This document shows positions 5,698 to 34,633 of a stretch of DNA of 64,000 nucleotides, in pieces. The stretch is taken from assembly GCA_023140255.1 (NCBI GenBank), contig JAGLLX010000010.1:19774-83773 (forward strand), in the 5' to 3' direction. A program made the position numbers and the translations under genes. Source of the stretch: Minisyncoccota bacterium (GTDB lineage Bacteria > Patescibacteriota > Minisyncoccia > Phycocordibacterales > UBA12079). The stretch's first letter is position 1, and every line of letters starts with the position of its first letter. The notes beneath the pieces are model-generated. The model saw only the letters and a program-made list of their open reading frames with translations, had not been told where the DNA came from and did not search any database.

Positions 5698-5769
5698 GGG
5701 TCCATAGTTTAGTTGGTAAAACAACGGTCTCCAAAACCGTCAACCGAGGTTCGAGTCCTCGTGGACCCG
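5698..5769 (+). tRNA. tRNA-Trp(CCA)
   Basis: GGGTCCA/TGGACCC acceptor stem; acggt-ctCCAaa-accgt anticodon arm; GGTTCGAGTCC T arm; no encoded CCA end. Confidence 0.96.
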
Positions 5770-5965
5770 CAATAATGAAAATCATCCAATTTCATATTGA
5801 GTGATTTTTATTATCTATGATTCTAATAGGACTCGAACGGTGATAGGAAAAGGACTAAATTCCTTTTCCGAGCCGCGACCAGCAGTACTTAGTAAAATTA
5901 GAGTGAACTTTGTGAACAAATAATTTTACTTAGTAACTGTGGGTCGAGTCCTCGTGGACCCGCAA
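5770..5965 (+). repeat. tRNA-3'-duplicating structured element
   Basis: 22-bp direct repeat 5751-5772/5944-5965; antisense T-arm copy at 5828-5838; internal hairpins. Confidence 0.8.
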
Positions 5966-6037
5966 AAAGACATTTAACCCCAAATGATAATTTGGGGTTT
6001 TAGTATTTTATAATCTTTATTTAATCTTAAGTTTTAA

Positions 6038-33544: not shown

Positions 33545-33656
33545 GTTTAGTTATTAAATTATATATTATGTCTTTTATTTTAACATAAAAATTAAATTAT
33601 TGAAAAAAAAGGTTAATTACTCTATAATACTAAAATAGATTTAATTAATTGTGCCT

Positions 33657-33738
33657 GCCGGAGTGGCGGAATTGGTAGACGCGCACGACTCAAAATCGTG
33701 TAGGGCAACCTGTGAGAGTTCGATTCTCTCCTCCGGCA
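33657..33738 (+). tRNA. tRNA-Leu(CAA)
   Basis: GCCGGAG/CTCCGGC acceptor stem; cacga-ctCAAaa-tcgtg; long variable arm. Confidence 0.96.
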
Positions 33739-33944
33739 CATAAAACAAAGAACCCAAAGCATTTAGCTTTGGGTAATTTTGTTTTAGTGTTGAGGAGTAA
33801 ATCGAAACGAACGAAGTATATTTTCCGTAATGAAGTGAAGGAAAATACGAGTGAGCGGGGTCGCGAGTTCTTAACGAAGACGAGTCTGCAAGGCGAAGTC
33901 TGAGTTTAGAACTGGAGACCGATTCTCTCCTCCGGCACATAAAA
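33739..33944 (+). repeat. tRNA-3'-duplicating structured element
   Basis: 25-bp direct repeat 33721-33745/33920-33944; degenerate antisense copy at 33787-33806. Confidence 0.8.
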
Positions 33945-33992: not shown

Positions 33993-34081
33993 TATGTACA
34001 GTTGTATCTTTTGTGGAAGTAAAGAATTTGTTGGGCTGTCTGACAAATATCTTAATTTCACATCCAAAAAGGAGAAAGGCT

Positions 34082-34204
34082 ATGAAAAAGCTCTGGAAAT
34101 CAACAGCAAACCCGCCCGGGTCAACAAGCAAATCTTTTAAAATAATTTTTGATTCCGCCGCCCCCGGTCACGGACCCGATACCGCCACCCAAAAACGAGA
34201 ATGA
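34082..34204 (+). CDS. Possible 40-aa peptide
   Basis: SD aaggagaaagg before ATG; MKKLWKSTANPPGSTSKSFKIIFDSAAPGHGPDTATQKRE*. Confidence 0.4.
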   Translation: MKKLWKSTANPPGSTSKSFKIIFDSAAPGHGPDTATQKRE

Positions 34205-34428
34205 CGGCGATAATCCGGTCCAGCACCGATCCTTCCTCCAACGATGGAGTCGATACGGATCGGTGCTTGCAGTAAAAGGTTTTGGTGGAGTCCTAATATT
34301 AAGAGGATGTGGAAGCCAGAGTCTTGGGAGAAACGAGTATTCACCCTCTCCCAAAAATGAATGTATGTCGTAGTAGCCGACCAAAAAAAGTTACTATCCG
34401 GTGACATTAATCTGTCACCCAACCCCTC
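34205..34428 (+). ncRNA. Candidate GC-rich structured RNA (unassigned)
   Basis: GC-rich relative to flanks; stems agcaccgatcc/ggatcggtgct, ttgggaga/tctcccaa and ggtgaca/tgtcacc. Confidence 0.35.
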
Positions 34429-34464
34429 AGGGGCGCCCAATCATAATTGGGGCGCCCCTTTTTT
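34429..34464 (+). terminator. Strong intrinsic terminator
   Basis: aggggcgcccaat-cata-attggggcgcccct followed by a T tract. Confidence 0.8.
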
Positions 34465-34513
34465 ATATTTAAAATGTCGGCTACCATATAGCCAGCATTC
34501 AATATTTTGGGGT

Positions 34514-34543
34514 TTTACTATTCCAGTTAACTGGAATAGTAAA
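34514..34543. repeat. 30-bp perfect palindrome
   Basis: tttactattccagtt|aactggaatagtaaa; related interrupted copy at 45853-45906. Confidence 0.85.
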
Positions 34544-34633
34544 GACCAAAATACTAAACTTCTCACAGAAATAAACAAAATTTAAATTTGTTCATACTAA
34601 AAACTAATTACTATAAACTAACTTACTGAAGTG

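Follow-up and report, generated by a model that had tools for sequence, protein, structure and literature searches.

Short cassettes that duplicate tRNA 3′ ends in Minisyncoccia: candidate mobile DNA with a fold conserved on the tRNA strand

Described systems and the cassette behind tRNA-Leu(CAA)

The RtT repeats of Escherichia coli are 178-bp units distal to tyrT that are curated as RNA (rttR, RF00391), and rttR is described as one of the tyrT repeat units (PMC3318445). Their mode of action has been called unknown by a source that also reports the rttR region as raised in exonuclease-resistant “mobilome” sequencing, where the signal at RNA genes is ascribed to RNA/DNA hybrids and not to circles (10.1101/2024.07.17.603846). 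In E. coli K-12 we found 17 RtT matches, 13 of them over the cut-off, with units read behind tRNA-Tyr, Pro-CGG, Lys and Ser-GGA. RtT-type units beyond tyrT/tyrV lie at proK, the lysT cluster, lysV and serX (L304-L311); some are shortened, and all are rich in GNA mini-hairpins. Tyrosine-integrase islands at tRNA genes (tDNA islands) are described as splitting a gene that the incoming sequence restores, with the displaced fragment left at the far end (PMC4383910). The palindromes of REP/REPIN and NTS/SRM type are regarded as probable single-strand substrates of an enzyme acting in trans (PMC3733652, PMC11893778), and integron attC sites are described as single-stranded DNA hairpins (PMC5737381).

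The window analysed here, a whole stretch of 64,000 nucleotides from a Minisyncoccota bacterium, carries one cassette behind tRNA-Leu(CAA) and another behind tRNA-Trp (Table 1). The Leu unit runs in the order tRNA tail, terminator-like hairpin (H1), antisense tail, two-armed core (P2 and P3) and displaced old tail, and no credible gene was found within it. A repeat finder recovered an exact 25-nt repeat, CGATTCTCTCCTCCGGCACATAAAA, at 33721-33745 and 33920-33944 (spacing 199), which can be extended to 33 nt at 91% identity. The repeat starts at C56 of the tRNA, and the unit extends from G57 to a C that replaces C56. Filled and empty Leu-CAA sites of relatives differ by one cassette unit, and we infer that the upstream tail copy belongs to the cassette. 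The repeat finder places the hairpin arms at 33737-33760/33766-33789; the antisense and the tRNA tail lengthen H1 to a long hairpin, and a 15-nt arm of the antisense is 87% complementary to 33719-33733. The repeat, hairpin, antisense, P2, GAGC and P3 features listed in an earlier note on this DNA are all present where it had placed them. The segment 33719-33920 folds as DNA at z -7.4, with 0 of 200 shuffles as good, and as RNA, too, the unit folds far above shuffles. Between the cassette and the convergent tRNA-Thr(TGT), a GC-rich stretch at 34000-34630 contains several palindromes and no convincing ORF; it is missing at the orthologous site in relatives whose two tRNAs lie 70-300 nt apart.

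Table 1. Positions of the two cassettes and their host genes in the window.
Feature	Position	Strand	Remarks
tRNA-Trp, host of the window's second copy	5698..5770	+
Trp cassette unit, 193 nt, core subtype D	5753..5945	+	repeat spacing 193
Trp H1	5772..5814	+
Trp antisense core	5828..5838	+
Trp P3	5877..5945	+	closed by GACC (5877-5880)/GGTC (5942-5945)
Displaced tRNA-Trp tail copy	5946..5963	+	followed by hairpin 5976-5999
Promoter candidate, sigma-70-like, 5′ of tRNA-Leu(CAA)	33600..33628	+	11/12 consensus matches; consensus match only
tRNA-Leu(CAA), host gene	33657..33739	+	C56 = 33721, G57 = 33722
Leu cassette unit, 199 nt, core subtype B	33722..33920	+	repeat spacing 199; filled/empty sites in relatives
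Upstream tail copy, tRNA positions 57-74	33722..33739	+	completes the gene
Hairpin H1	33740..33786	+	inner stem 33752-33774 terminator-like on both strands
Antisense to tRNA positions 74-54	33787..33806	+	ends TCGAA; candidate guide
Arm P2	33807..33858	+	stem TATTTTCC/GGAAAATA at 33819-33826/33840-33847; GA-rich base; GAGC at 33853-33856
Arm P3	33859..33920	+	stem 33859-33881/33898-33920; GGTC/GACC base; T-T mismatch; GA/GAA loop; GCA triloop 33888-33890
Displaced copy of tRNA 57-74 plus ATAAAA	33921..33944	+	attR-like relic

Like RtT, the cassettes stand behind tRNA genes of several kinds and stack in tandem, and both follow one layout: a spacer, a host-matched antisense, a two-armed junction and then a copy of the tRNA tail. 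GNA triloops, GA-rich loops and an antisense ending GAGAA are also found in both. The RtT tail copy starts at position 58, however, whereas that of the cassette starts at 57; the second RtT arm is a cluster of mini-hairpins and that of the cassette a long rod; and RtT is curated as RNA. At the gathering score the RF00391 model had no match in the genomes G000 (the source of the window), G005 and G011 or in 20 cassette loci, and neither of our cassette models, R1 and R2, had a match in RtT loci. The split, restored gene and the displaced fragment recall tDNA islands, but the cassette is about 200 nt long, has no integrase within it or among the 145 downstream neighbours scanned and no cargo, begins its identity at C56 with T54-T55 unrepeated, and carries an antisense and a conserved single-strand fold. 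It is short, non-autonomous palindromic DNA, as are REP/REPIN-RAYT, IS200/IS605 and NTS/SRM-Ssn elements, and its DNA-type fold and fixed junction may make it a hairpin substrate cut at one site, as is the case for IS200/IS605 and REP; a GIY-YIG gene of its own genome is flanked, in NTS/SRM-Ssn fashion, by a repeat with the cassette-type GAG-hairpin-CGAA module. Unlike REP and IS200 elements, it is strictly targeted to tRNA tails, has an 11-20 nt antisense, a duplicated tail and a three-way junction, and shows no co-occurrence with Y1 enzymes. Stacking in variable order and a folded single strand with extrahelical features are reminiscent of attC, but no cargo genes are present, the crossover lies in the tRNA T loop, and no integron integrase passed the TIGR02249 cut-off in five genomes. 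The IS110 recombinase of bridge-RNA elements (PF02371) occurs in one of five genomes, which is not G000, and, in contrast to retrons, diversity-generating retroelements (DGRs) and SINE-like elements, there is no reverse transcriptase (RT) in the genome itself or among the downstream neighbours of cassettes. On the tests run, the cassette resembles a minimal tDNA island or a REP-type single-strand element in the way it works and RtT in its build, yet it belongs to none of these groups.

The two copies in the window were also compared. The earlier note had read their closing stems as a full compensatory swap; the inner two pairs are indeed exchanged, but the outer G-C and C-G pairs are identical. 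The flipped stem is a marker of the core subtype (B for Leu, D for Trp) and not of the host tRNA: for five core subtypes the hosts range over 3 to 26 tRNA kinds each. The note had also proposed that its family should be given up if the Trp and Leu spacers failed to align structurally better than shuffled controls. Model R2, built solely from 143 copies in other genomes, has just two hits in the window, Trp at 81.7 bits (E 1e-16) and Leu at 53.7 bits (E 4e-10), and the family thus withstands this test.

Spread of the family, its antisense and its cores

The source genome (564 kb, about 30% GC, 33 tRNAs and one tmRNA) has seven full copies, behind Leu-CAA, Trp, Arg-TCG, Gly-GCC, Ala-TGC, Glu-TTC and tmRNA (7/34 genes), and a truncated one at Gln-TTG. 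In relatives, 220 distinct copies were found, behind 35 tRNA kinds and tmRNA. Within the DNA fetched around each of these hits, a same-strand tRNA or tmRNA lies upstream in 181 of 220, under 38 labels, two of which are pseudo-calls on repeats. Copies lacking an upstream tRNA were considered as autonomous ends, a reading that was rejected: most of those looked at lie where a contig ends, or have been pushed away from their gene by an island at the tRNA 3′ end, which leaves a 4-7 nt remnant of that end before the hairpin. Model R1 matches 28 of 41 relatives, among them all 18 genomes of the same family, with 8-29 matches each; it finds the family by sequence and is weak at distance, matching 3 of 151 phylum genomes. 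R2 matches 28 of 101 class genomes; of 27 loci drawn from these R2-positive genomes, 22 follow a tRNA and have the same layout. Genome G008 holds 16 copies; the single-contig genome G011 has 27 matches, and its antisense matches reach at least 10/11 at 16 of 40 ARAGORN calls. A pattern scan of genome contigs returned at least 120 loci, mostly GC-rich chance matches; among the pattern matches listed, 17 of the first 80 pass R1, in records titled as Patescibacteria groups or plainly “bacterium”.

Searches of phage and plasmid collections found no copy, and in viral contigs none of seven pattern matches passed R2 and a second pattern gave 0. Rfam returned only tRNAs in the window and no credible family for 20 loci at E up to 0.5. 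The author of the earlier note knew of no description of such a family, and none was found in our literature search, which took in few subscription papers or preprint supplements; the supplements or databases of two genome-language-model preprints of 2026 may contain it as an unnamed cluster.

Several other arrangements were seen near these tRNA genes. A sister core, with a P2 of GGAACTTTT/AAAAGTCC and a purine-rich end, sits between the same antisense and sense tails and is missed by R1 and R2 (tRNA-Cys of G000, L006; Leu-TAA, L207; Pro-TGG, L264 and G011 at ~196.5 kb). The palindrome CCTGCCTGCCGGCAGGCAGG, found inside cassette apical loops and tRNA fragments at many loci (e.g. L187, L198, L204, L227), looks like a mobile unit of even smaller size. 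Tails of tRNAs also recur in another type of repeat, about 90 nt long, which copies the 3′ half from the anticodon arm on and has a GNA-type hairpin where the 5′ half would be; as many as four stand in tandem and are called pseudo-tRNAs by ARAGORN, at tRNA-Thr TGT (L008 ~2205-2368, L032 432-861, L033 396-558), tRNA-Lys CTT (L006, L192) and tRNA-Ile TAT (L005). At tRNA-Gly TCC (L001, G000:C1:90058-90240), a 62-nt duplication from the D arm onward lies 50 nt downstream.

The general order of a unit is tRNA 57-74, H1, antisense 74-54 ending TCGAA, P2, P3, the junction between C and R (a purine) and the downstream tail. In 118 of 132 first units the antisense fits its own tRNA (58-65) better than other tRNAs. 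Its conservation falls mainly on positions 54-64, with 85-100% Watson-Crick pairing in 116 units, figures that are inflated because these units were chosen for at least 9/12 matches; over positions 66-74 only 17 of 116 segments are perfect. The GAA pairs with positions 54, 55 and 56 in 116, 115 and 114 of the 116 anchored units, and the antisense stops at the T loop, since in all 116 only 0-2 additional bases match past T54. At positions that distinguish the tRNA from its downstream copy, the antisense follows the tRNA in 27 cases, the copy in 2 and neither in 2, with 15 units skipped as too short, and only 52 of 133 downstream copies match exactly over 17-18 nt; the second copy therefore behaves as a relic. 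In many units (27 listed) an extra shared hairpin splits the antisense at the boundary of acceptor and T stem; it is present in 8/9 subtype C units and 0/15 of subtype B. The junction is preceded by C in at least 211 of 220 hits and followed by GA in 179 and AA in 30, counts that are partly by construction, its position being set by the model end. The displaced copy of subtype C is 1-2 nt short in 9 of 11 cases, at 8 tRNA kinds, against 10 offsets in 103 for the other subtypes, a shortening that is like an insertion footprint.

These findings, together with module orders and cores common to several tRNAs, bear out the earlier note's family with host-specific tRNA-matching ends. At the orthologous Leu-CAA site, G000, G005 and G010 have a cassette, whereas G002, G003, G004, G012 and G014 have an empty site; related genomes are not independent, so counts of sites, stacks, cores and footprints are descriptive. 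In G005 (L009) the hairpin and downstream gene of the empty G002 site (L019) reappear after the second tail copy. Two to four units are stacked at 24 loci, mostly with different H1 and cores, and some identical tandem pairs among them may be assembly effects. Mean core identity is 0.640 for pairs at the same tRNA and 0.630 for pairs at tRNAs of different amino acids, and the nearest core is at a different tRNA in 105 of 116. Near-identical cores occur at different tRNAs (Arg-GCG/Phe of G004, 99.2%; Pro/Asn of G005, 96%), and in the 99% pair the identity begins at TCGAA and ends just past the junction. One Tyr/Arg pair has both hairpin and core in common, which fits whole-unit transfer followed by adaptation. 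No correlation was seen among the identities of H1, P2 and P3 (rho -0.007, r 0.08), a result that ordinary gene conversion accounts for as well. A direct core-core junction was found in 0 of 38 candidates, and in contigs of runs X1-X4 the Leu unit is unbroken, with no joints and no excised, circular or empty form; rare variants are lost from such contigs, and the assembly may itself derive from these runs. In islands at tRNA-Ser 3′ ends (L188, L199, L224, L017), which push the cassette downstream, a conserved end segment of ~100 nt is common to them, and just before it stand short direct repeats that look like the arm sites of integrases.

A fold conserved on the tRNA strand

P3 has strong support from covariation. 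In the alignment 86% of cells are paired, with 621 double changes against 222 in shuffles (0/500), and slid controls are 28-48% paired; the pairing, read from the column consensus and also used for R2, leans towards the alignment tested. G-T pairs number 82 and A-C pairs 33. The tRNA strand is the strand that folds, and strand-biased deamination could contribute to these two counts. No bias towards a replication strand (lagging strand) was seen in G011, where 8 of 16 antisense-bearing tRNAs are co-oriented with replication.

Comparison alone otherwise hardly separates folded single-stranded DNA from RNA, as noted for attC (PMC5737381), and loop usage provides a further handle. Mini-hairpins of the type GCGNAGC/GCGNNAGC are reported to be far stabler as DNA than as RNA, with melting at 76.5 C for d(GCGAAGC) and 39 C for r(GCGAAAGC) (PMC13037366). 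The 165 apical loops that could be parsed (55 of the 220 copies could not) comprise 63 GNA, 16 GNYA, 18 TT/TTT, 3 GNRA, 1 UUCG and 64 others. The tRNA strand carries 170 GNA hairpins, compared with 21 for the opposite strand and 66 for shuffles (maximum 87), whereas GNRA hairpins are not enriched (29 vs 37). Loop usage thus points to folded DNA over RNA. A self-cleaving ribozyme was set aside in view of the DNA-type loops and the lack of an Rfam match.

Candidate enzymes and explanations

The earlier note had proposed looking for co-occurrence with a recombinase, RT or HUH nuclease family, but neither RT nor Y1/HUH, IS110 or integron integrase proved to be linked with the element. Among 145 downstream neighbour genes (the 137 upstream neighbours were outside the scan) there are no integrase, recombinase, Y1 transposase or RT genes, and one GIY-YIG, two LAGLIDADG and one HNH gene. 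Y1 genes occur in 15 of 27 element-positive and 44 of 73 element-negative class genomes, and are absent from G008 despite its 16 cassette copies. RT is present in 14 of 41 relatives and absent from the source genome. GIY-YIG is found in 94 of 101 class genomes, so near-universally that its presence is uninformative. The source genome itself encodes two Y1-like proteins, an Xer-like protein, two GIY-YIG proteins and a single serine recombinase.

Some loci met in this survey are recorded here in their own right. A small GIY-YIG gene (L295 2047-2450; G000:C1 ~87.5 kb) lies directly after an Xer-like recombinase and is flanked by inverted GTCATTGCGAG-type repeats that hold the cassettes' GAG-hairpin-CGAA module, an arrangement like that of Ssn and CGTC repeats. 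The two Y1/RAYT-like genes (L293 and L294; G000:C10 ~20.1-20.8 kb and C3 147-860) encode 230-237 aa, and the one on C3 has flanking AGTAGACATCGGATGTCTACT repeats that also occur in frame within the ORF. Free-standing LAGLIDADG genes lie downstream of tRNA-Leu CAA in relatives (L009, L019, L032, L033); upstream, at L014, a small GIY-YIG-like ORF lies between a 5′ tRNA fragment and the intact tRNA-Leu CAA gene. The RT loci L288 and L291, with an Avd-like neighbour or a template-repeat-like region, are consistent with DGRs.

We give an even chance to the reading that the cassette is a non-autonomous mobile element, active as folded DNA of the tRNA strand and joined between C56 and R57 by an enzyme acting in trans. 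The non-template (tRNA) strand, once single-stranded, for example during transcription, would fold to a three-way junction in which P3 stacks on the helix of antisense and tail and places the C/R step at the helix junction. P3 and the antisense helix meet exactly there with no linker, and it is for this reason that C/R is suggested as the joining site. A nicking-and-joining enzyme would then cut and join at C/R and in the T loop, either excising a circle of ~200 nt or inserting one. On insertion the target strand would be caught by the antisense, whose GAA would first gain a toehold on T54-T55-C56; the circle lacks these three bases. This GAA is almost invariant, complements T54-T55-C56 of the target and has no partner in the excised circle or the downstream copy; it may instead be conserved as a junction motif. 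The incoming tail would restore the gene, while the old tail and terminator, displaced downstream, would decay. The cutting, the circles and any retargeting are all putative, and a circle from one tRNA could enter another only by replacing its tail, so retargeting would need an extra, hypothetical step. Cores and hairpins are likely swapped between units at different tRNAs, and one core could therefore reach many addresses.

Alternatively, with no dedicated enzyme, the cassettes could be old residents kept for a host role as DNA structure. Slippage between the repeats would then remove them, homologous recombination would bring them back, and gene conversion together with template switching at hairpins would shuffle them. 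Such a role might be to shield the tRNA attachment site from islands or to act as a primase or repair signal at heavily transcribed genes, and mini-hairpins are reported to mark phage single-strand origins and to resist SSB (PMC13037366). The free reassortment of modules, the survey without an enzyme link, and an H1 that in 28 of 114 cases is closest to one behind the same tRNA (3.6% by chance) all accord with residents of this kind. We nevertheless think them unlikely, as most class genomes (28/101 have a copy) and many tRNAs (7/34 genes here have one) carry no detectable copy, islands do insert in front of cassettes, and neither a fixed C/R junction nor a subtype-specific footprint is expected from conversion alone. 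It is quite improbable, in our judgement, that only the core moves and that every insertion makes its ends anew on the target as template, possibly with an RT, as the earlier note's ends templated from the target tRNA would imply. A conceivable route is fold-back extension of the terminator hairpin over the tail, template switching at the TCGA palindrome and target duplication. The antisense does continue H1 seamlessly and stops at the T loop, some arrays repeat an identical tail-H1-antisense before differing cores (L029, L267), and the 99% pair is identical from TCGAA to just beyond the junction. But the acceptor part (66-74) is perfect in just 17 of 116 antisense segments, the extra hairpin that splits the antisense (27 listed) is not expected from simple copying, most arrays carry a different H1 in each unit, the Tyr/Arg pair shares hairpin as well as core, and 27 of 41 genomes, including the source genome, have no RT, the two RT loci inspected looking DGR-like.

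The other proposal of the earlier note, a cis-acting RNA, is in our view very doubtful. If transcription read through past H1, the antisense could pair into the T and acceptor stems, and maturation of the tRNA would be slowed or adjusted, after which the second tail would release the tRNA and an RtT-like small RNA may be freed. In the full Leu read-through transcript the T arm is indeed sequestered in the fold (z -8.2), the antisense tracks the tRNA itself, and E. coli rttR is an RNA annotated from one such repeat. Against this, GNA triloops are enriched and GNRA/UUCG are not, a terminator-like H1 stands ahead of the antisense, occurrence at orthologous tRNAs is patchy, subtype-mixed and stacked, and cassettes persist after islands have parted them from their tRNA.

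If the cassettes are mobile or protective DNA, annotation overlooks parasitic or protective sequence at as many as about half of the tRNA loci of some streamlined genomes, and the repeats break or confuse assemblies at tRNAs. A wider reading, which we regard as somewhat unlikely, would unite the cassettes with enterobacterial RtT in one unrecognised superfamily of DNA-guided mini-elements with the antisense as a reprogrammable guide. Strand exchange would bring the antisense onto the T arm of a tRNA gene, a host enzyme or the folded DNA itself would join at the T loop, and cores would be interchangeable. RtT would then be a relic of mobile DNA, misfiled as regulatory RNA for three decades, and an old puzzle becomes testable in E. 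coli: are these units single-stranded-DNA mobile cassettes or RNAs? Were the antisense a guide, the cassettes would represent gene-less, base-pair-programmed integration at a site that every tRNA shares, and their enzyme would be of interest for targeted insertion.
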